DNA of 64,000 nt from an uncultured Methanoregulaceae archaeon (GCA_963737635.1 CAVTTL010000001.1:128001-192000); one strand, 5' to 3'; numbered from the stretch's first letter, positions 40,580-49,388 are shown. Program-made: numbers and translations. The notes: generated by a model not told the origin, from the letters alone.

Positions 40580-41247
40580 ACCGGCCACCTCCATGAGAGC
40601 GGGTAGAAGGATGTATCGGAAAGCCGGGAAAAGACCGCCGCCGGTGCCCCGGTATGCACCACCCGGCCCTTCTCAAAATAGAGCAGCAGGTTCCCTTGTG
40701 CCGCAGTCTCCATCTGCTGCGTACACCGGATGATATACGGAACACCGGAAGCGCGGAGAGCCTCCTCGAGCCATGCGCACCGGCCCGCGTCAAGGTGCGA
40801 ATCGCATTCATCAAGGACGAGGACGCGGGGCCGGTTGATGCAGGCCGCGGCAAACGCAACGATGACTTTCTCTCCTCCGCTCAGGTCCTGCATGCGCCGG
40901 TCCAGCAGGTTATGGATCCCAAAACGTCCTGCACAGTCCCGTACTGCACGACTTGTCTCTTTACATGGTGTATACTGAAAACGCAAGGACGAGGCAAGTT
41001 CATCCCGTACTGTCGAAAAAAGGATGTTCCGATCCGGGAACTCGTTTACATACCCAATCCCGGTCAACCGGGGGGGCTGTTCGTCAACGAGCACGATACC
41101 GCACTCAGGTTCAGTGATACCGGCGCAAAGTTTCAAAAAGGTACTTTTGCCGCTGCCGTTCCTGCCGATAACCGATGTGACGCCAGGGGGAATAGCAAGA
41201 GCATCGATAGCAAGGCACCGATACCGGATTTTATCAAGAGTGATCAT
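40576..41247 (-). CDS. ECF transporter ATPase
   Basis: GRNGSGKST, LSGGE, LVLDE. Confidence 0.85.
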   Translation of the reverse strand: MITLDKIRYRCLAIDALAIPPGVTSVIGRNGSGKSTFLKLCAGITEPECGIVLVDEQPPRLTGIGYVNEFPDRNILFSTVRDELASSLRFQYTPCKETSRAVRDCAGRFGIHNLLDRRMQDLSGGEKVIVAFAAACINRPRVLVLDECDSHLDAGRCAWLEEALRASGVPYIIRCTQQMETAAQGNLLLYFEKGRVVHTGAPAAVFSRLSDTSFYPLSWRWPV

Positions 41248-41753
41248 GGCAGCTGCCGGGCAACCAGGTACACGGCACCGGCCTTTGCCGCTTCACCAGG
41301 AAGGAAAATGACTAGTCCAAGGATGAATGCCGCACCAAGGGCCATACCCGAAGTTGCCATCAGCCATGCCACACCGCAGAGGAGGATGAGCACTGCAGCG
41401 CAGCAAAGCCCCGCAATCCGCCGGATCAAACCATCCGACTCCCAGGCAACACCGGCAAGGAAAGCCGCAGGAATAAACCCGATCAGGTATCCCCCGGTAG
41501 GCCCAAGCAGTACACCTATCCCGGCGACACCGTTATGAAAAATCGGCAGGCCGAGGGTACCTAGCACCACATACAACGCGACCGGGATAACGGCTTCGCG
41601 CTTCATGACCGCTGCAGAGAGCAGGACAAAAAACGTCTGTAGGGTAAACGGTGCGGGAACGAACGGAACCGAGATCCAGCCGCCTAAGGTGATGAGTCCG
41701 ATAAAGGCTGCAGTATAGGCAATACGGCGTGAACGCTGGAGGTCGCCAAACAT
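41244..41753 (-). CDS. bioY: biotin transporter substrate component
   Basis: PFTLQT, GLPIF, GPTGGYLIGF. Confidence 0.92.
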   Translation of the reverse strand: MFGDLQRSRRIAYTAAFIGLITLGGWISVPFVPAPFTLQTFFVLLSAAVMKREAVIPVALYVVLGTLGLPIFHNGVAGIGVLLGPTGGYLIGFIPAAFLAGVAWESDGLIRRIAGLCCAAVLILLCGVAWLMATSGMALGAAFILGLVIFLPGEAAKAGAVYLVARQLP

Positions 41754-41810
41754 CGTCAACCACTAAAAATTGAGAGGTTGACGATAAAAAAGTACCGGTC
41801 TCACTGGCTT

Positions 41811-41860
41811 TGCACGTAATGTCGTTTCTGCACGTAAAGTATGAGACTTGCACGTAAAGT
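41811..41860 (+). repeat. left-end array of three TGCACGTAA(A/T)GT motifs
   Basis: Copies start at 41811, 41829 and 41849. Confidence 0.9.
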
Positions 41861-41909
41861 CCAAAATGTTGCGGCAATAATCGGAAATTGGACGAAAGAT
41901 AAAAAAAAG

Positions 41910-43262
41910 TTACTTTCTCGTCTCTTCGGCTTCTATGCCATAGAAGTCTAGTTTTATTTGGACAGCTTCTTTCTGTACTCTATCTTCATCAATTTTATCA
42001 AAGAAAGATGAAAGCTTGTCTTTAATGTCATACTCAGGGCCAGTGATTTTTCTAGAATTTGCTGCTACAGTTAAAACATCAGATAATAATTCCTTTCCGC
42101 CTTTGTTTGGAGCTATTGTTAAAACGCCCTCAGTTATAGCATCTTTACTGATTAACCCAACCTGATCTAATGAGTTCCTCACTTTTTGAACAACCGCAAC
42201 TTCAAATTCGTCAATTAATTCGTCTTCTGTGACCGAATCCCGATTTTGTATTTTTACGAGTATATCCGTTGACTCAGGTACACTTCTTATAAGACGCAAT
42301 ATGTCAGCAGCATTGTTGTATTCGTAATAATTCAAACCTAGCAATGTGCCACTTGTAGGGCGACTTAATGCATCTTCTAATTGGAGTGTACGTGTCCTTT
42401 GGGCAAGTCCCATATTATCAACGTGCCTAATTAACCGATTCACAACCCTCTGATTCCACCCTGTAGCTTCAACAATTTCGCTTTGAGTGATATAACCTCC
42501 AAATTCTCCCGTTGTGATTAATAACTGCTTTAATGCAACTCTTACCTCATTTGCCTCTTCTAATACAGTTTGCCAAGTATTCAGGGCTTTTTCTCCGAGA
42601 ACGTATGCTTTAGCAAAAGTAAATTCTCTTCCAGTTACACTAATCGGACGGATTATGTCGATATCTGATAATGCACCATAATCCCTTGCAAAATCAGCCC
42701 AATTTGGAGAATTTGCCTCAAGATCATTTGTAAGTTCCGGAAAATCCTGAATACGGTACATAATATCAAAATGGTTTTTTTGCTCGCTAAACAACTTTGT
42801 ATTCAAAAGGAAGTTATTTCGGACATACAATTTACTGCCCACTTGATATGGCATTACTTTTTCAATTTTCTTTTTTGTTGGATCAAATTGAATTATTCCA
42901 TCGGAAATAAGATGAGGTATAACAGTACCATTCAAACTAGTGTTGAAACTAGATCTTTGACTTGTTGTAGGTGTGACATTCCAAACTCTTTCCACAATAT
43001 CATTCACGGAATGAGTGGAGTGAGCAGCATCCAAAAATGCCAATGCTCTGGCTAGAGAGACGGCAGAGCTAAAATGTCCGGCATGTCTTTGATAAGTTCT
43101 CAGTGGATTCGATAAAACAAATTCTCTGACCCCACGGGTCATCTGATCTACCGCTCTTATTACATCATTTAATTGTTTATCATTCAAACGAGAGAGAACA
43201 TTTGGAGGTATTTTTTTAACCATAGGATCTGAAAGATAGGGTTTAAAAATATCATCGGCCAT
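41910..43262 (-). CDS. transposon cargo protein of unknown function with probable tandem winged-helix domains (450 aa)
   Basis: ITQSEIVEATGWNQRVVNRLIRHVDNMGLAQR and VTEDELIDEF...VRNSLDQVGLI resemble wHTH units; AT-rich. Confidence 0.65.
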   Translation of the reverse strand: MADDIFKPYLSDPMVKKIPPNVLSRLNDKQLNDVIRAVDQMTRGVREFVLSNPLRTYQRHAGHFSSAVSLARALAFLDAAHSTHSVNDIVERVWNVTPTTSQRSSFNTSLNGTVIPHLISDGIIQFDPTKKKIEKVMPYQVGSKLYVRNNFLLNTKLFSEQKNHFDIMYRIQDFPELTNDLEANSPNWADFARDYGALSDIDIIRPISVTGREFTFAKAYVLGEKALNTWQTVLEEANEVRVALKQLLITTGEFGGYITQSEIVEATGWNQRVVNRLIRHVDNMGLAQRTRTLQLEDALSRPTSGTLLGLNYYEYNNAADILRLIRSVPESTDILVKIQNRDSVTEDELIDEFEVAVVQKVRNSLDQVGLISKDAITEGVLTIAPNKGGKELLSDVLTVAANSRKITGPEYDIKDKLSSFFDKIDEDRVQKEAVQIKLDFYGIEAEETRK

Positions 43263-43263
43263 A

Positions 43264-44238
43264 TCATTTCATCTCCTTGAGGATTTTCTTCTTGCAATCA
43301 TCCAAAAATATTTGAGAAATTATTATATTATCTGTTTTTGGGTCAAGGGACACAATCGAAGCATTGTTAATTTTTAATCTCCAATTCTCGTGTTTAAATA
43401 GACGATCAAGATCAGGGGCGAAATCATAATTCTTTAGAGATTTTAACAAGATATCACGATCTTCAGCTTGTTTTATTGAATGAATTGCATCGGAAAATAT
43501 TGCAAAAATTTGTTCATTCAGATCAAGAATAGGGGCAAACGGATGTATGGATGTGCTCGATGCTTTCCCCTCCAATTTATAACTCATAGCTGAAGCCAAT
43601 CCCCGAATTAATGAAAAATATTGCATATTTTGTTTATTCACTTTTTCAATTTTGTACAGAGGCTCAAAAAGTGTGGAAATGTCTTTACCAGAAGGATTAC
43701 GGATTGTTTTTATTGAAATTATGGTATGAGCTGAACTGATAATCATAATCCTTCGGATTGTATCTAATGATGTGGCATTACCTAATTGTTGAGATAATTC
43801 TAGATCATTAAGTCCTTCCTTAAAATTCTCAATAACTTCCCAACAATGGTTTTCAAAGATTAAGGAAAAGGGTGAAAACGGATCGCACACCATTGAATCA
43901 TAGCTCTCAGCAAGCAATCCCGCAGTAATATGGTTTTTTGTTGAGGAATCTAAATCGTCTTCCAATGCAGGAATGCCCCCAACCCATCTAACGAACGATT
44001 TTTTTGACTTTATTCCTTTATATTTGACTACAAATCCCTCGTTCTGAAGAATATTTGCGCGTCTACCTGTGTTGCTTGCATGAAGGCCTATCTCTAAAGC
44101 AAGATCAGGGACGGAAATCTCCTTCCTCTCGAAAACTATTTTTAGAATCTTTTCATCAATGGGATCAATTGGTCTATTAATGATCTTGGCAATTCGTGTT
44201 GTTTTCGAACCGCTTGATTTTTTTGGGTCTGGCTTCAT
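43264..44238 (-). CDS. transposon cargo protein with N-terminal MarR-like wHTH (~324 aa)
   Basis: DPIDEKILKIVFERKEISVPDLALEIGLHASNTGRRANILQNEGFV; a second wHTH-like segment follows; stop is 1 bp from the next start. Confidence 0.7.
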   Translation of the reverse strand: MKPDPKKSSGSKTTRIAKIINRPIDPIDEKILKIVFERKEISVPDLALEIGLHASNTGRRANILQNEGFVVKYKGIKSKKSFVRWVGGIPALEDDLDSSTKNHITAGLLAESYDSMVCDPFSPFSLIFENHCWEVIENFKEGLNDLELSQQLGNATSLDTIRRIMIISSAHTIISIKTIRNPSGKDISTLFEPLYKIEKVNKQNMQYFSLIRGLASAMSYKLEGKASSTSIHPFAPILDLNEQIFAIFSDAIHSIKQAEDRDILLKSLKNYDFAPDLDRLFKHENWRLKINNASIVSLDPKTDNIIISQIFLDDCKKKILKEMK

Positions 44239-44388
44239 AATACATTCATTCTCCCCGAAGTTTTTACATCTTTGCGCAATCTGCAACTCTGCGCAACTCT
44301 GCGCATATAATCAACGTTGCTCTCCTGACTACTTATAAATAACTCCATTTCGAACATTAATTTTCACCCTGCGTTCTGAATGTTTTAA

Positions 44389-44538
44389 TTAACCATTCAT
44401 TTTCTCTCTCTTCGGAATGTTCCAATAAGGACTCTTACACTTCGGACAAACTTTTGGCTCCTCCGTACCTCGTGCGATCCACTCGTGCCCACACCGTTCA
44501 CACTTGAATCCATCAACTACTAGCTTCACTTTTGCCAT
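44389..44538 (-). CDS. zinc-ribbon microprotein (49 aa), absent from the ORF track
   Basis: Translated by hand: MAKVKLVVDGFKCERCGHEWIARGTEEPKVCPKCKSPYWNIPKREKMNG; two CxxC motifs. Confidence 0.82.
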   Translation of the reverse strand: MAKVKLVVDGFKCERCGHEWIARGTEEPKVCPKCKSPYWNIPKREKMNG

Positions 44539-44553
44539 GCATAGTGTGTTACT

Positions 44554-44638
44554 TTGTTAGTATATAATTATGTAAGGTATTACCAACTAATCGGCAAGTA
44601 TATATGCAATGCTTACGTATATAGTAATATACCAACAA
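44554..44638. promoter_or_regulatory. divergent promoter region with inverted repeat
   Basis: TTGTTAGTATAT (44554) and ATATACCAACAA (44627) are inverted, 11/12 match; TATA-like runs between the microprotein and the transposase. Confidence 0.5.
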
Positions 44639-44662
44639 GGTAAGTTTAAGGAGTGAAAAAAG

Positions 44663-45898
44663 ATGCAAACCAACAAACCCCTAACCACCAGCCGCGAAGA
44701 GAGGGGGCGAGAAATCGCTAACAAGAGCGGTCACATCCAGAAAGTCAAAGACAACCAGTACAAGGTAAGGTCACAGTCCGGCAATGGCTCTTATGAGATC
44801 AAAATCACCGGGACCGGGGCCGAATGCAGTTGCCCGGATTTCCAGAACCGGCACCAGCCCTGTAAACACATTCTGGGACTTCGCTATTATCTTGAAATTC
44901 AGAAAGATACTCCAAAAGGCACCGTTACTGAAAAGGTACGCTTAACCTACACTCAGGCATGGAGCGCATACAACGCCGCGCAGACAGAAGAGATCAAGAT
45001 ATTCGATGCTCTGTTAAAGGACTTAGTAAAGGCGATTCCTGAGCCGGAGCAAAAGATGGGGAGACCGCGCCTGCCCATGAGTGAAACTCTCTTCTGTGCG
45101 ATTCAGAAGGTATACTCGCAGTTATCCAGCCGCCGCGCACACAGCCTCTTTCAAAATGCAGTCGAGCGGAAACAGATCGACCACGCGCCATACTTCAATG
45201 TAACATCAGCCGTTTTTAACAACCCTGAGATTACGCCGATACTTCACGAACTGGTTACACTCTCGGCGTTACCGGTTGCCGGTCTGGAAACAGACTTCGC
45301 GGTAGACTCTACCGGATTCAGAACCACTACATTTAGCGAATACTGCGGAATGAAACATGGACAGAAGAAAGCACACCGATGGATCAAGGCACACTTGGCA
45401 ACCGGTGTAAAGACCAATATCGTAACAAGTATTGAGATCACCGGAGAGAACGGTGCGGATTCCCCGCAGTTTACGCCACTTGTCAAAGACATCTCAAAGA
45501 ATTTCAATATCCACGAGATTTCCGCCGACAAAGCATATTCATCCCGCGACAACTACGAGACTGTAAATGCAGTCGGCGGTACTGCATATATCCCGTTCAA
45601 GAATCATGCAACTGGCAAGACTCGCGGCTCTCCCATCTGGAAAAAGATGTACCATTACTTCCAACTTAACAAGGACGAGTTTATGGAGCACTATCACAAG
45701 CGCAGTAATGTAGAATCCACCAACGCAGCGATCAAAAGGAAGTTCGGGGAAACCCTGAAATCAAAGAATCAGATCGCGCAGGTGAACGAATTACTAGCAA
45801 AAATCATCGCATACAATCTGACGGTAGTAATTCACGAGATGTACGAGAATGGGATCTCACCGGACTTCCTGCACGTAAAGTCCGAGGTTTGCACGTAA
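44663..45898 (+). CDS. tnp: DDE transposase (IS5/IS903-like) with N-terminal SWIM zinc finger
   Basis: CSCPDF...CKH SWIM motif; AVDSTG, SADKAY, YHKRSNVES..K catalytic motifs. Confidence 0.93.
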   Translation: MQTNKPLTTSREERGREIANKSGHIQKVKDNQYKVRSQSGNGSYEIKITGTGAECSCPDFQNRHQPCKHILGLRYYLEIQKDTPKGTVTEKVRLTYTQAWSAYNAAQTEEIKIFDALLKDLVKAIPEPEQKMGRPRLPMSETLFCAIQKVYSQLSSRRAHSLFQNAVERKQIDHAPYFNVTSAVFNNPEITPILHELVTLSALPVAGLETDFAVDSTGFRTTTFSEYCGMKHGQKKAHRWIKAHLATGVKTNIVTSIEITGENGADSPQFTPLVKDISKNFNIHEISADKAYSSRDNYETVNAVGGTAYIPFKNHATGKTRGSPIWKKMYHYFQLNKDEFMEHYHKRSNVESTNAAIKRKFGETLKSKNQIAQVNELLAKIIAYNLTVVIHEMYENGISPDFLHVKSEVCT

Positions 45899-45929
45899 TG
45901 TAGGGTCAAAACCCTACTTTACGTGCAAA
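45870..45929. repeat. right-end motif array and 19-bp-stem palindrome
   Basis: Motifs at 45870 and 45890 (direct) and 45916 (inverted); TTTGCACGTAATGTAGGGT-CAAA-ACCCTACTTTACGTGCAAA. Confidence 0.88.
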
Positions 45930-45936
45930 GCCGGTC

Positions 45937-46916
45937 TCACTGGTGGAAACAGTCGCCGGCGATTACACGTTCAAGCTTGCCATTGTCTTTGCGGATGATG
46001 AGCGCGCCAAACTCGTCGATATCAACCGCCTCACCAGAAAAACTGTTCTTGAGTGTCCGGATATTCACCCGGTGTTCGAGTGTGCAGGAGAGGCTTTTCC
46101 ATTCCCGGATGATGGTATCGTATTCCCCACCTTCGAGAAGGAGATACTGGCCCTCAAACTCTTTTAAGATCCGTGCGAGAAACGAAGCACGGTCTACTTC
46201 GTGGCCGAGTTCTGCGGATATCGAGGTAATATTGTCCTGCAGCGCCGGAGAGAACGTACTGATGGGAACATTTGCATCGATGCCTATCCCGAGCAGGCAG
46301 TAATGGACGGTATCAGCTTCCGCCGCGAGCTCAAGAAGCAGGCCTGCGACTTTCTTGTTCCCAATGAAGATGTCATTTGGCCACTTGATCAGTCCACCGA
46401 GGGAAAACTCCTTGCGTATCGCCCGTGCAACCGCGACAGAACCTGCCATGGTGATCATAAAGACATGATCGATCGGGATATGGGGCTTTAGGACAATCGT
46501 AATCCAGATCCCGCCGCTGGGCGAGAGCCAGGCCCTTCCCATCCTGCCGATGCCGCCGGTCTGCTCCTCGGCGATGATTACCATACCGTGCATCTTCTCT
46601 ACGTCGCCTTCGGCACAGAGCTGTTTTCCCGCCCAGATGGTCGAAGGCGTATTCTCCAGGTACCGCATCTTCTTTCCAATAAACGTGGTATGGAGTTTTT
46701 TATGGATCTCGTACGGGAGCAGCTTGTTGCTCATGCGGGTGAGCCGGTACCCTCTTTCTGAGATGACTCGATGTCATAACCCATCATGCGCAGTTCGTTG
46801 ATGTGCTTCCATACCGCAGACCGGGTGATGCCCAGTTCGTTGCTGACAGCCTCACCTGATATGGGACCGTCCGCCTTTTCGAGAATTTCCATGACCCGAA
46901 ATGCAGAATCAGGCGT
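45937..46916 (-). CDS. birA: bifunctional biotin-protein ligase/repressor; frameshift near 46750 separates the HTH
   Basis: QTGGIGRMGRAW, KWPND, KKVAGLL; upstream frame encodes ISGEAVSNELGITRSAVWKHINELR; start codon uncertain (ACG after GGAGGTGA). Confidence 0.88.
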
Positions 46917-47380: not shown

Positions 47381-47957
47381 CTAGAATAAGGTTTGCGTAC
47401 CCTGAGCGCAGAATTGTTGTACAAAAGCACGGGAGGGATATTCGTGGACGCTGGTCACGATCACCGTTCCTTTCCCCACGTTTTTCTCGATGATGACCGG
47501 TGAGCCATCAGAGCCTCCAGCTATATCCCCTTCATGGGAGGGAAACGAGCCATCACACTCGATGCAGGCGGGATCGTAGTCTTCTATAAGAGCCGTCCCC
47601 AGCACCGATCCCCCGCAGGTAACCTTCCGGGGAAAGACATCGTGCCGGTACGTGACCGGAAACGGCAGCCAGTCGTACGCGTCCGGCCGGTCGATTGCCG
47701 CCCCGAAAACAAGGAGGTTGCCACCGTTCTCTACAAATCGTTGTATACGTTCCGAAGATGCACGGAGTGCCGGAAGCAACCGGCAAAATGCAGGGTTTGC
47801 AAAACCGGTAGGGATAACAAGGCAGGTAAACGAGCCACGGAAGAATGGTGCAGCGAGCATGTACGGGGTAACGAGCTCGCAAGGGACGCCGCAATCCTCG
47901 ATATACCGGACAAAATGCTGGGGCGTCTCCCAGACAAATCCCGCCCGGCGAGCTCAT
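47381..47957 (-). CDS. conserved hypothetical protein (probable frameshift just after the start)
   Basis: Frame 47381..47860 extends upstream (GFVWETPQHFVRYIEDCG) to an out-of-frame ATG overlapping the rtcB stop. Confidence 0.6.
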
Positions 47958-49388
47958 CCTTTGATCACTCCCAGCGGGGAGAGACGGGCGACGAGAGTGG
48001 AGAGCCCGGCATCATGAACGACCTGTACCACTTCACTGCTGGGTTTGTAGACCTCCGGTGCCTCGTCGGCAATCGCCGCCTCATTAGGTGCCCTGACGAT
48101 AATTCCCTGGGCAAGGAGCCGGTCAGCCACCTCTTTTCCGGTCAGTGCCTTTTTGGCCTGGGACCGGCTCATGACTCGGCCCGAACCGTGGCAGGTGCTG
48201 CCGAAGGTCCGCTCCATCGCTGTTGTGGTCCCTTTGAGGACGTACGATGATGTCCCCATGCTCCCGGGAATGAGCACCGGTTGGCCGATCCCGGCAAGGT
48301 CCGCTGGCAGGTCCGGGGCACCGGGCCCAAACGACCGGGTGGCTCCTTTGCGGTGTACCATGAGCCGGGTCCGGCGGCCGTCATACTGATGCTCCTCAAT
48401 CTTTGCTACGTTATGGGCGACATCGTAGACAAGGGGCATACTTTCGTACCCGATCCCGAACATCCGGACGAACTCCTGGCGTGCCGCGTGCAGGATCAGC
48501 TGGCGGTTTGCCCATGCATAATTTGCCGCGGCGGCCATCGCCCCAAAATAAGCTGTTCCTTCGGGAGACTCGATAGGGGCGCAGGCAAGCTGGCGATCCG
48601 GGAGGAGGATATGATACTTCTTTGTCGCAGTCTCCAGGGTTTTAATATGATCGGTACAGATCTGGTGGCCAAGCCCCCGGGAGCCGCAGTGGATCATGCA
48701 GCATATCCGGCCCTTTTCCAGGCCAAATGCCGCCGCTGCTGCCTCATCGTAGATCTCACAAACTTCCTGGAGCTCGAGAAAATGGTTGCCCGAACCAAGC
48801 GTTCCACCCTGGGGGACTCCCCGGGCCCGGGCCTTAGCCGAGACCGCACGGGTATCGGCCTGTTTCATGGCACCACCTTCTTCGCACCGGACAAGATCCC
48901 GTTCAAGGCCGTCAGCCGGCTTCTATTGCCCAGCGCGCTCCCTTCTCCATCATAGCATCGAGTGCTGCCGGAGTAAGCTTGAGAGAACTCTTTGCACCGA
49001 CACCGGTTGGCACGGCACGATATAAGGCCTCGATGAGATCCCGGGGTTTTTTAATATCCCTTCGCACAAGCGGTGTGGTAAAGAGCCGCACCCCGCAGTT
49101 GATGTCAAACCCGACCCCTCCGGGAGAGATTATCCCTTCATCAAAGGAGAACGCCGCGACACCACCGATGGGAAAACCGTAGCCCCAGTGGAGGTCCGGC
49201 ATACCCAGAGAATACTTGACGATCCCCGGCAGGGTGGCAACATTTGCCAGCTGCTGTACGGCACCCGGTTCAAGGATAGCCTCAAGGGCATCTGAAAGGA
49301 AAAACCGCCCCGGCACGCGCATACCAGGCACATAACCGAGGGGTATCTCCCATTCACTTGGACCGGCTCGTATCACACCTTCAGGCAT
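47954..49388 (-). CDS. rtcB: RNA-splicing ligase RtcB; frameshift near 48910
   Basis: MPDLHWGYGFPIGGV, GFDINCGVR, GTLGSGNHFLE, HRKGATR, STCHGSGR. Confidence 0.93.

Follow-up and report, generated by a model that had tools for sequence, protein, structure and literature searches.

Between positions 41806 and 45932 of a 64,000-nucleotide stretch from an uncultured Methanoregulaceae archaeon (GCA_963737635.1 CAVTTL010000001.1:128001-192000; the whole stretch is called the window below) lies a real, intact unit transposon of 4127 bp that is derived from insertion sequences (IS) of the IS5/IS903 type. Its family has three unusual traits that are found family-wide: an obligatory, defence-rich cargo, asymmetric ends with three sites each, and a fixed register of insertion upstream of archaeal core promoters. 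The explanation that we regard as very likely is that the element is an intact unit transposon, or 'transporter IS', from a large archaeal family that is IS5-derived and closest to IS903, inserts at the edge of promoters and carries a variable cargo bay. An earlier note on this DNA had described it as an IS903-like cargo transposon, and we take up the claims of that note where our results bear on them.

The element is bounded by perfect 14-bp inverted repeats. The left one, GGCTTTGCACGTAA (41806-41819, plus strand), starts with GGCTTTG, and the right one (45919-45932, minus strand), which reads TTACGTGCAAAGCC on the plus strand, is its exact reverse complement. Directly outside both ends stands the same 9-bp target duplication, GGTCTCACT (41797-41805 and 45933-45941), of which the empty sites of relatives hold a single copy. 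A count of the exact 14-mer over the 2.46-Mb assembly gives four occurrences in all, two at the ends of this element and two at those of one sister element. Inside the repeats are one uninterrupted transposase gene (44663-45898, plus strand; 411 amino acids (aa), SWIM and DDE_Tnp_1 by Pfam) and three other open reading frames (ORFs), of 450, 340 and 49 aa. Repeats, exact duplication and gene content were all as the earlier note had given them.

The transposase combines two regions. Pfam places SWIM at residues 52-73 (26.9 bits, cut-off 19.6) and DDE_Tnp_1 (PF01609) at residues 210-386 (92.3 bits), and at E values up to 0.1 it gives only these two and no Mutator/IS256-type DDE domain. The NCBIfam matches are all to IS5, IS1182, ISNCY, IS4 or IS1634 models; the match to the IS5 family transposase model NF033579 covers residues 100-387 and profile positions 3-288 of 289, and is marginal (142.3 bits for a cut-off of 140). 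In 12 aligned family members the CxCxnCxH signature of SWIM (C55, C57, C67, H69) is invariant, as are D215, D289, E351, Y344, R347 and K358, with Y344-R347-E351-K358 forming the motif Y-2-R-3-E-6-K. The best named relatives by tblastn against plasmids are IS903B, ISAba10 and IS17, at 22-25% identity over residues ~100-385. In a pairwise alignment with IS903B (23% identity, residues 100-385) DSTG, SAD.AY and Y-2-R-3-E-6-K align, and the GGCTTTG tips are the same, which agrees with the IS903 kinship that had been proposed. A single IS903B copy was fetched (in L109). It is 1057 bp long, with ends GGCTTTGTTGAATAAATC that start GGCTTTG, and its one gene encodes a protein with DDE_Tnp_1_5 (PF13737, E 3.8e-39) and DDE_Tnp_1 and with SWIM absent; at least in this copy, the statement of the earlier note that IS903 has neither cargo nor SWIM finger is correct. 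Taken together, the Pfam and NCBIfam matches, the IS903B alignment and the invariant residues identify the transposase core, at the level of sequence, as IS5/IS903-type, with an added N-terminal zinc-finger (SWIM) region of ~100 aa. A PDB sequence-profile search with the transposase alignment gave nothing relevant. A plasmid match to ISGNB1 that appeared to span the SWIM region was set aside, as its extra stretch falls outside the annotated 315-aa gene.

Homologues of the window transposase amount to at least 5608 proteins among the 7999 best candidates scored. In their sources they are called 'transposase' or 'IS5 family transposase' and in no case 'ISxxx-like element', and the organisms given are Methanoregula, Methanothrix and a Pacearchaeota archaeon. 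With each species represented by one genome, a scan yielded 78 loci, hosted by Methanoregulaceae, Methanotrichaceae, Methanocellaceae, Methanosarcinales, Methanomassiliicoccaceae, Thermoplasmata, Micrarchaeota, Altiarchaeota, Aenigmatarchaeota, Nanohalarchaeota, Bathyarchaeia and a few bins labelled bacterial. Elements were delimited with a script that accepts two ends if they agree in at least 11 of 14 positions and are enclosed by an exact direct repeat of 9 bp. This delimited 38 of the 78 genome loci and 34 of 80 metagenome loci (the 80 being drawn from at least 240); six of the 34 repeated earlier sites and were dropped, leaving 28 new sites. The 38 elements together with the window element and its sister form the 40-element set used below, and with the 28 they make 68. 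Exact 9-bp duplications were thus seen at the window element, the sister, a gene-less derivative and the 38 and 34 other loci. Because an exact duplication was required, young insertions are favoured in this sample. The 68 elements range from 2326 to 7715 bp, all of them carry extra genes, and a bare IS of ~1.3-1.5 kb is not found among them.

The whole cargo-bearing unit moves, because pairs of elements that are 100% identical, cargo included, sit at unrelated sites. The identity of L137 and L139 extends over 4154 bp and takes in a type IIG-like restriction-modification (RM) gene for 819 aa, and that of L158 and L159 extends over 3256 bp; within each pair the flanks are unrelated and the duplications differ. 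A 95.7% copy occupies a third site (L131). With extra genes in every one of the 68 delimited elements and identical units at unrelated sites, the 'transporter IS' character assigned in the earlier note stands, and its suggestion to look in this and related genomes for the same inverted repeats with a 9-bp duplication, and to compare the cargo, led to 68 elements whose cargo varies.

Alignment of 40 insertion sites of the family shows no palindrome and a strong one-sided motif: read outward from the element, the 9-nt duplication is followed by gaAAcC and then by TTTATATA. This is the textbook archaeal arrangement of B recognition element (BRE) and TATA box. We counted as a TATA box any match of at least 6 of 8 positions to TTTATATA, with a background of 0.0046 per position taken from DNA 100-1500 bp away. 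A match lies exactly 6 nt past the duplication on the left in 18 of the 40 elements and on the right in 5, never on both sides (binomial p 9e-32 and 1e-6). On the left, offsets 4 and 8 give 3 and 5 matches and every other offset from 0 to 35 gives fewer than 3. The result was replicated in the 28 new metagenome sites, where the +6 TATA box is on the left in 9 and on the right in 4 (p 6e-15 and 8e-6), which brings the total to 36 of 68 sites with a left bias of 27:9 (p 0.004). An outward-reading gene start 25-150 bp away accompanies 19 of 28 evaluable flanks with a +6 TATA box versus 24 of 78 flanks that have none (Fisher p 8e-4). On these counts the duplication abuts an archaeal BRE/TATA promoter at a fixed register, a relationship that is new here. 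The earlier note had seen a symmetric ACC-N9-GGT target; this symmetry is present at the window site, but the mirrored flank positions are not enriched over the 40 sites, and as a general target rule it fails. A scan for sigma-70 promoters and terminators stayed at chance level, the bacterial consensus not being applicable to archaea.

The ends themselves are built from a repeated 9-mer. Three direct copies of TGCACGTAA stand at the left end of the window element, at +6, +24 and +44 counted from its tip: site L1 (41811-41819) is included in the terminal repeat, and L2 (41829-41837) and L3 (41849-41857) make up a subterminal segment at 41829-41857 on the plus strand. At the right end, two 9-mers in the orientation of the left sites lie at -63 and -43 (R3, 45870-45878, and R2, 45890-45898; segment 45870-45898, plus strand), and one, R1, is inverted at the tip, at -14. 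R3 and R2 fall within the final transposase codons, and the stop codon TAA belongs to R2. R2 and the inverted R1 form a near-perfect palindrome (45888-45929) with 19-nt arms, a 4-nt spacer and 95% complementarity. The full 6/24/44 and -63/-43/-14 layout is present in 18 of the 40 elements and a partial one in most others. At least seven different 9-mers are used by the subfamilies, namely TGCACGTAA, TGCATCTAA, TGCTACTAA, TGCTCCTAA, TGCTCTTAA, TGCACCTAA and TGCACTTAA. As far as sequence comparison can tell, the end architecture is asymmetric, conserved and made of co-varying 9-mers, and it too is new here; the earlier note had noticed neither these ends nor the promoter target. Given their fixed position and co-varying sequence, the 9-mers are putative transposase binding sites.

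Three related pieces of DNA lie elsewhere in the same genome. The sister element (C1:978781-982455; L008:2001-5675) is 3675 bp long and is flanked by a 9-bp duplication of its own, GGATGCCCG. It has the same ends and the same zinc-ribbon gene as the window element, and the two transposases are 91% identical, yet the two elements resemble each other in DNA only over the first 58 bp and the last 1531 bp. The homology breaks off exactly where the third left 9-mer ends and, on the other side, at the stop codon of the zinc-ribbon gene, boundaries that look as if cargo had been exchanged as a cassette. The sister's cargo consists of proteins of 468 and 184 aa that are unrelated to the window cargo and belong to no Pfam or PADLOC family at the thresholds used; a kinship between the 468-aa protein and a cargo protein of like size in L058 was considered and dropped, since the two are not related. 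The gene-less derivative (C1:855947-856358; L010) measures 412 bp and has related ends, GGTTTTGCACCTAA and AGCTTTGCACCTAA, and the 9-bp duplication GAACTTTTG; its right flank, caaacc-TTTAAGAT, is at the promoter register of the family. The third copy (L009; 4208-5403 and 5488-7414 together with two genes just outside it) has a 5'-truncated transposase and a gene for an EVE-domain protein (157 aa) between the transposase stop codon and the right end.

The cargo of the family was examined in two sets. In the first, comprising 118 ORFs of at least 80 aa from 38 foreign genome elements, a DNA methyltransferase domain is present in 18 of the 38. Examples of RM systems are a BsoBI endonuclease with its methylase, an EcoRI-type methylase with GmrSD/HNH, and a C5 methylase with HNH, and many genes combine HSDR_N, N6_Mtase and a specificity domain. 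The same set holds SDH-type ClpP-like proteases, HNH, PIN, NYN and SocA/Panacea antitoxin domains, KaiC with FIST, DUF4365 and one protein with a TATA-binding protein (TBP) domain. PADLOC defence models match 19 of the 38 elements, including both parts of the candidate systems PDC-M02 and PDC-M19, and 15 of the 38 have no cargo domain match at E 1e-5. The second set comprises 52 ORFs of at least 100 aa in 26 distinct elements. A methyltransferase was found in 8 of these elements, once together with a SfiI-type endonuclease; PIN, SDH protease, ORC/CDC6-like and AAA/STAND genes also occur. One metagenomic element (L177:3736-5488) carries a DarT and Macro pair, a toxin-antitoxin or defence module of DarTG type. 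Overall, a methyltransferase is found in about 4 of 10 foreign elements, usually within an RM system. Directly upstream of the transposase gene, and divergent from it, elements of the 40-element set have a small gene of one of several groups. It encodes a zinc ribbon in 9 of 40; the other groups in this slot are two that are AbrB/MazE-like (5 and 3 elements; PF04014, MazE/AbrB, in 2 of 5 members of the first) and five of 2-3 elements each. One of these five has a Pfam ribbon-helix-helix domain (RHH_5, 3 of 3), one matches DUF7557, one has a single sub-threshold RHH_6 match and two have no match.

In the window, the element separates two biotin genes. On its left is bioY (41244-41759, minus strand; BioY), after which an ABC ATPase gene comes next, and on its right is birA (45937-46734, minus strand; biotin ligase with BPL_LplA_LipB and BPL_C), whose stop codon (45937-45939; TCA in plus-strand reading) falls within the right-hand duplication. 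The bioY core promoter is kept beside the element (41783-41796, minus strand) and starts directly past the left duplication. Read on the minus strand, it consists of ggtact in the BRE position (41796-41791) followed by the TATA-like TTTTTATC (41790-41783), which matches TTTATATA at 6 of 8 positions at the +6 offset of the family. The motif ggtact-TTTTTATC is 24-30 nt upstream of the bioY start codons and is also present where relatives have the empty site. Insertion left the 15 bp before the TATA box as they were, 9 of them being duplicated, so the bioY core promoter evidently survives.

We searched 40 relatives with the region and its flanks, 24 of them of the same genus. The empty birA-bioY site that the earlier note had wished to see was found in 19 of these 24 genomes, where the two flanks abut within 25 bp with no element and one target copy. 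The eight empty sites that were aligned each have a single target copy, the closest being ACCGGTCT-ACTGGT. The exceptions are one genome with the flanks on two contigs (G002), one with the right flank only (G011), two with no match (G007 and G012, which are 63% and 73% complete) and one, G009, that has an unrelated, AT-rich spacer of 486 bp between bioY and birA at the exact place of the element (L018:1015-1500). In this spacer we found no inverted ends and no ORF of note. Contigs of four other sequencing runs, from four studies, span both junctions with no differences. In these four runs no contig joins across the element and thus no empty site was seen, although contigs cannot reveal rare variants. 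Because the sites of the relatives are empty, yet the four other runs carry the element, the insertion is younger than the species and not visibly polymorphic. The 'recent' insertion of the earlier note is accurate relative to species divergence only, since the same site is filled in the contigs of the four other runs.

The cargo of the window element is an operon that reads leftward, from the zinc-ribbon gene through the gene for a 340-aa protein to that for a 450-aa protein, with a run of eight T residues beside the left end. The first gene (44389-44538, minus strand) encodes a 49-aa zinc-ribbon protein (CxxC...CxxC, KSPYW) and is divergent from the transposase gene. Between the two is an AT-rich control region of 124 bp (44539-44662) with several TATA-like stretches, which may hold the promoters of both the transposase gene and the cargo operon. 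Cargo gene 1 (43264-44286, minus strand) is a 340-aa ORF that probably encodes 324 aa from the ATG at 44238, as its database copy and most homologues have about 324 aa. Cargo gene 2 (41910-43262, minus strand) encodes the 450-aa tandem winged-helix protein. Archaeal transcription commonly ends at oligo-T runs, and the T8 run directly past the stop of this gene (41901-41908, minus strand) is likely the terminator of the operon. The GC content is 0.33-0.40 in the cargo, 0.45-0.50 in the transposase gene and 0.51-0.60 in the flanks.

Neither large cargo protein passes a Pfam, NCBIfam or PADLOC threshold. The 340-aa protein has an N-terminal winged helix-turn-helix (HTH_24, E 1.7e-4, just under the cut-off) and further winged-helix-like domains. 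Both families are small: among 5.8 billion sequences the 450-aa family has 44 clusters and the 340-aa family 56, and the two have only 11 representatives in the all-against-all library. AlphaFold2 models (pLDDT 85.3 and pTM 0.79 for the 450-aa protein; pLDDT 80.4 and pTM 0.58 for the 340-aa protein) depict both as chains of winged-helix domains. The best fold matches are to single ArsR-, MarR- or Cdc6-type winged helices, with Z up to 9.0 over ~60 residues, and there is a weak whole-chain resemblance to multi-winged-helix proteins such as RPC62 (E 1e-3). Foldseek returned nothing at E <= 0.001 for either model, and in the ESM Atlas the 450-aa protein had no usable match, while all that the 340-aa protein matched were generic winged-helix clusters below 0.9. 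The pair recurs at 44% identity in a Methanothrix element (its transposase is 72% identical to that of the window) and in 3 of 400 sampled other genomes of the phylum. In G133 it stands beside a truncated family transposase, with no end pair with an exact duplication around the two; in G415 it stands beside a degenerate transposase with a right end; and in G278 no transposase lies within 3.8 kb upstream. Because elements with 90-91% identical transposases carry other cargo, the window cargo genes are, by this comparison, passengers. Our best guess is that they constitute a DNA-binding regulatory, silencing or defence-type module.

How might such an element work? A single DDE transposase would excise and insert the whole 4.1-kb unit through 9-bp staggered target cuts; the duplications speak for the staggered cuts, and cut-and-paste chemistry would be expected from the transposase family. 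The transposase would bind three 9-mers per end in the asymmetric layout (left sites +6, +24 and +44 direct; right sites two in the same orientation and one inverted and terminal), as conservation with co-variation suggests. Insertion would be non-random, such that the duplication abuts the upstream edge of a BRE/TATA core promoter, 6 nt from the TATA box. Left-end promoters outnumber right-end ones roughly three to one, and the host promoter would stay intact and fire away from the element; in the window it is the bioY promoter, immediately past the birA stop codon. The N-terminal SWIM region of ~100 aa is the best candidate for an extra DNA- or target-recognition function. The cargo bay would extend from the left end sites to the small DNA-binding-protein gene beside the transposase gene. 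Across the family it is filled mostly with RM, toxin-antitoxin-like and other defence-type genes; in the window it holds an operon of low GC content that encodes a zinc-ribbon protein and the pair of tandem winged-helix proteins.

Several of our own results weigh against this picture. The NF033579 score is only 2 bits over its cut-off, and the window transposase, unlike IS903B, has no match to PF13737 (DDE_Tnp_1_5) at E up to 0.1, although its residues 100-210 still align to the PF13737 part of IS903B. The roles of the SWIM domain and of the 9-mer sites are ones that we infer only. The window copy may no longer be jumping, because its genome holds no second identical copy and the same site is occupied in four other runs. 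With an exact duplication required, 40 of 78 genome loci and 46 of 80 metagenome loci could not be delimited, and in many of these a contig end cuts the locus. At 32 of the 68 sites there is no TATA match of at least 6 of 8 at the fixed offset; L045/L084 and L130/L131 are orthologous sites and so not independent; and gene starts were taken from an ORF heuristic (a greedy non-overlapping ORF set) rather than a gene caller. In the cruder nearest-ORF test that this heuristic replaced, the two sides did not differ (left 16 of 34, right 15 of 39). As for the window cargo, fold searches detected no enzymatic fold in either model, and no PADLOC match is better than E 0.0085 in the 2023 library, where a new system could be missed.

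While it is conceivable that the promoter pattern reflects purifying selection instead of targeting, with near-random insertion and survivors only in harmless spots upstream of promoters, we consider this improbable. Delimited elements are survivors by definition, AT-rich intergenic promoter regions tolerate insertions, and the 32 sites that lack a strong TATA match at the fixed offset would be in keeping with it. Selection, however, cannot set a single-nucleotide register (offset 6 has 18 left matches, offset 4 has 3 and offset 8 has 5), and the BRE position is part of the flank consensus gaAAcC-TTTATATA. Moreover, L137 and L159, which are very young because they are 100% identical to their partners, are already at sites with 7/8 and 8/8 TATA matches. 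If insertion is targeted, the transposase could still do so by pure DNA readout, responding to the base sequence of (G/A)AAnn-TTTATATA or to how readily it bends, and touching neither TBP nor transcription factor B (TFB), and we give this somewhat less than an even chance. Many DDE transposases prefer bent or AT-rich targets, TAAAG is common to the target and the end repeats of the element (CGTAAAGT), and the hosts span very distant archaeal phyla with differing TFB and TBP. On the other hand, the target motif stays constant while the end 9-mers co-vary (TGCACGTAA, TGCTACTAA, TGCTCCTAA and others), and target and end recognition are therefore separable; between DNA readout and tethering to the initiation complex, the data here fit both. 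It is tempting to speculate that the family homes, via the SWIM region, to an initiation complex in which TFB occupies the BRE and TBP the TATA box, and from such a safe harbour shuttles RM and other defence cassettes between very distant archaeal phyla, the winged-helix pair of the window being a new module that acts on DNA or on transcription initiation. We hold this combined proposal to be doubtful; the weak fold resemblance of the pair to RPC62 and TFIIE-type proteins is only a hint. If true, promoter homing would be the archaeal DNA-transposon counterpart of the targeting of Pol III genes by Ty3 and Ty1.

Two other alternatives concern the extra genes. That the three in the window are accessory proteins for transposition or target selection, and not passengers, seems very unlikely indeed, even though all three are DNA-binding-type proteins and the 450-aa and 340-aa pair adjoins this transposase family in 4 of 5 genome instances (window, L034, G133 and G415). 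The sister has a 91%-identical transposase and the same ends with unrelated cargo, L023 combines a 90%-identical transposase with a BsoBI-type RM system instead, and the same target motif is used by elements with entirely different cargo. The G278 pair with no transposase within 3.8 kb upstream, and the GC content of the cargo, which differs from that of the transposase module, also argue against an accessory role. A plain IS that captured host DNA once via a surrogate end, in a one-ended or composite event, and not a stable family of unit transposons, is likewise hard to credit and given little probability. Cargo bays differ sharply even between close relatives, as in the 58 and 1531 bp shared by window and sister elements, and some process of capture or exchange must therefore exist. 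However, the window element and most others have no internal end 9-mer or inverted repeat beside the transposase gene (33 of 40 elements have 0-1 internal copies), none of the 68 delimited elements is a bare IS of ~1.3-1.5 kb, and identical whole units occur at different sites. The reading that we prefer thus remains a stable family of cargo-bearing unit transposons that insert at promoters.

The element is both like and unlike systems already known. It shares with IS903 and IS903B the DDE_Tnp_1 core with D, D, E and Y-2-R-3-E-6-K, and the GGCTTTG ends. IS903 makes 9-bp target duplications; the IS903B copy fetched here has no matching flanks, and the length was not seen there. Compared with the 1057 bp, single gene and absence of SWIM in IS903B, the window element has 4127 bp, three extra genes and the SWIM region of ~100 aa. 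Further differences from IS903 are the three 9-mers per end in an asymmetric arrangement and the BRE/TATA promoter as target, whereas the target preference of IS903 is roughly palindromic. Transporter IS (tIS) is the ISfinder term for IS-like elements that carry passenger genes, and like these the window element has one transposase, short inverted repeats, a small duplication and unrelated passenger genes within its ends. A tIS, however, is an occasional derivative, whereas here a whole large archaeal family carries cargo as a rule (all 68 delimited elements), and the cargo occupies a defined bay beside a slot for a small regulator gene. Eukaryotic elements also seek out promoters: Ty3 and Ty1 target Pol III genes, Tf1 targets Pol II promoters, and Mutator/MULE elements have a SWIM-bearing transposase, a 9-bp duplication and a preference for 5' ends. 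The family described here resembles all of them in inserting just upstream of transcription start regions and sparing coding sequence, and Mutator in its SWIM finger and 9-bp duplication; it differs from them in its catalytic domain (DDE_Tnp_1), its archaeal host and its exact 6-nt register.

Two bacterial systems come close in cargo. According to Furuta et al. 2010 (PMC2853133), transposon-like RM units likewise have RM genes within inverted repeats, an 8-bp duplication and empty sites; they had been chosen after discarding cases with linked mobility genes, a filter that left no RM system from archaea. By comparison, the present elements are archaeal, autonomous and of one family with a defined transposase. 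Tn7-like transposons (Benler et al. 2021, PMC8649781) are site-selective and have cargo dominated by defence systems. Elements of the Tn7 type are bacterial, much larger and dependent on multi-protein TnsABC(D/E), with attachment sites downstream of conserved genes. The family described here has a single IS5-type transposase and a promoter target. In the literature searched, with ISfinder, subscription journals and supplements outside it, there is no description of archaeal cargo transposons that combine SWIM with IS5 or of promoter-targeted archaeal IS, which accords with the earlier view of a poorly described family. A term search of the accessible text of a 2026 archaeal IS survey found the words SWIM, IS903 and passenger all absent, and the Discussion of a 2019 survey (PMC6563490) says that passenger-carrying DNA transposons were not detected in archaea.

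The present family supplies such passenger-carrying archaeal transposons, with thousands of members from methanogens to Micrarchaeota, Altiarchaeota, Aenigmatarchaeota and Thermoplasmata. It is a concrete route for the horizontal spread of RM, DarTG, PIN and candidate defence systems in archaea, and its cargo bays are a place to seek new ones. The 6-nt register upstream of the TATA box offers a handle on how the transposase recognises an archaeal promoter or initiation complex, and possibly an orientation-aware, promoter-proximal insertion tool for archaea, where genetic tools are few. Insertions also mark real promoters in uncultured archaea, and the conserved ends (GGCTTTGC, three 9-mers and the 9-bp duplication) permit elements to be delimited automatically.

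A number of smaller observations were made on individual loci. In L097 (4654-4700) the right-hand duplication is directly adjoined by the left end of another element. In L035 (101-5051) it runs into the next left end, so that the same 9 bp occur three times and separate copies of 2462 bp; we did not use these tandem copies as a case of repeated insertion at one promoter, because the contig end mirrors the contig start and the arrangement is possibly an assembly artefact. L130 and L131 appear to be the same site in two related organisms, with flanks 88-96% alike. Their elements share only the transposase part (81%) and carry different type IIG-like genes, for proteins of 800 and 819 aa, which could be due either to an old insertion with fast-evolving cargo or to reuse of the site or a cargo swap. 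Just outside the third copy in the genome of the window (L009) are overlapping genes for a 393-aa protein with no family and for a radical-SAM protein.

With regard to transcription factors, the genome of the window has three TBP paralogues (C1:54538-55056, 1737374-1737892 and 2106445-2106966), and only one TFB with PF00382 was found in it. In an uncultured archaeon, the left end of an element (L061:2247-2546) holds the gene for a 99-aa TBP-domain protein with a single repeat (PF00352, E 4.9e-11), a cargo that deserves notice given that the family inserts beside TATA boxes.

Near the insertion site, an inverted repeat, ATCGTCAACC...GGTTGACGAT, lies at 41752-41785 of the window, between the TATA-like box and the start of bioY. 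It is kept in all eight aligned empty sites of the same genus and is likely an operator for biotin-dependent regulation. Farther along the window, at 47954-49388, RtcB is encoded as two consecutive minus-strand ORFs of 158 aa (48912-49388) and 304 aa (47954-48868). The second covers only profile positions 127-426 of 426; the gene could be split, carry a frameshift or be subject to recoding.

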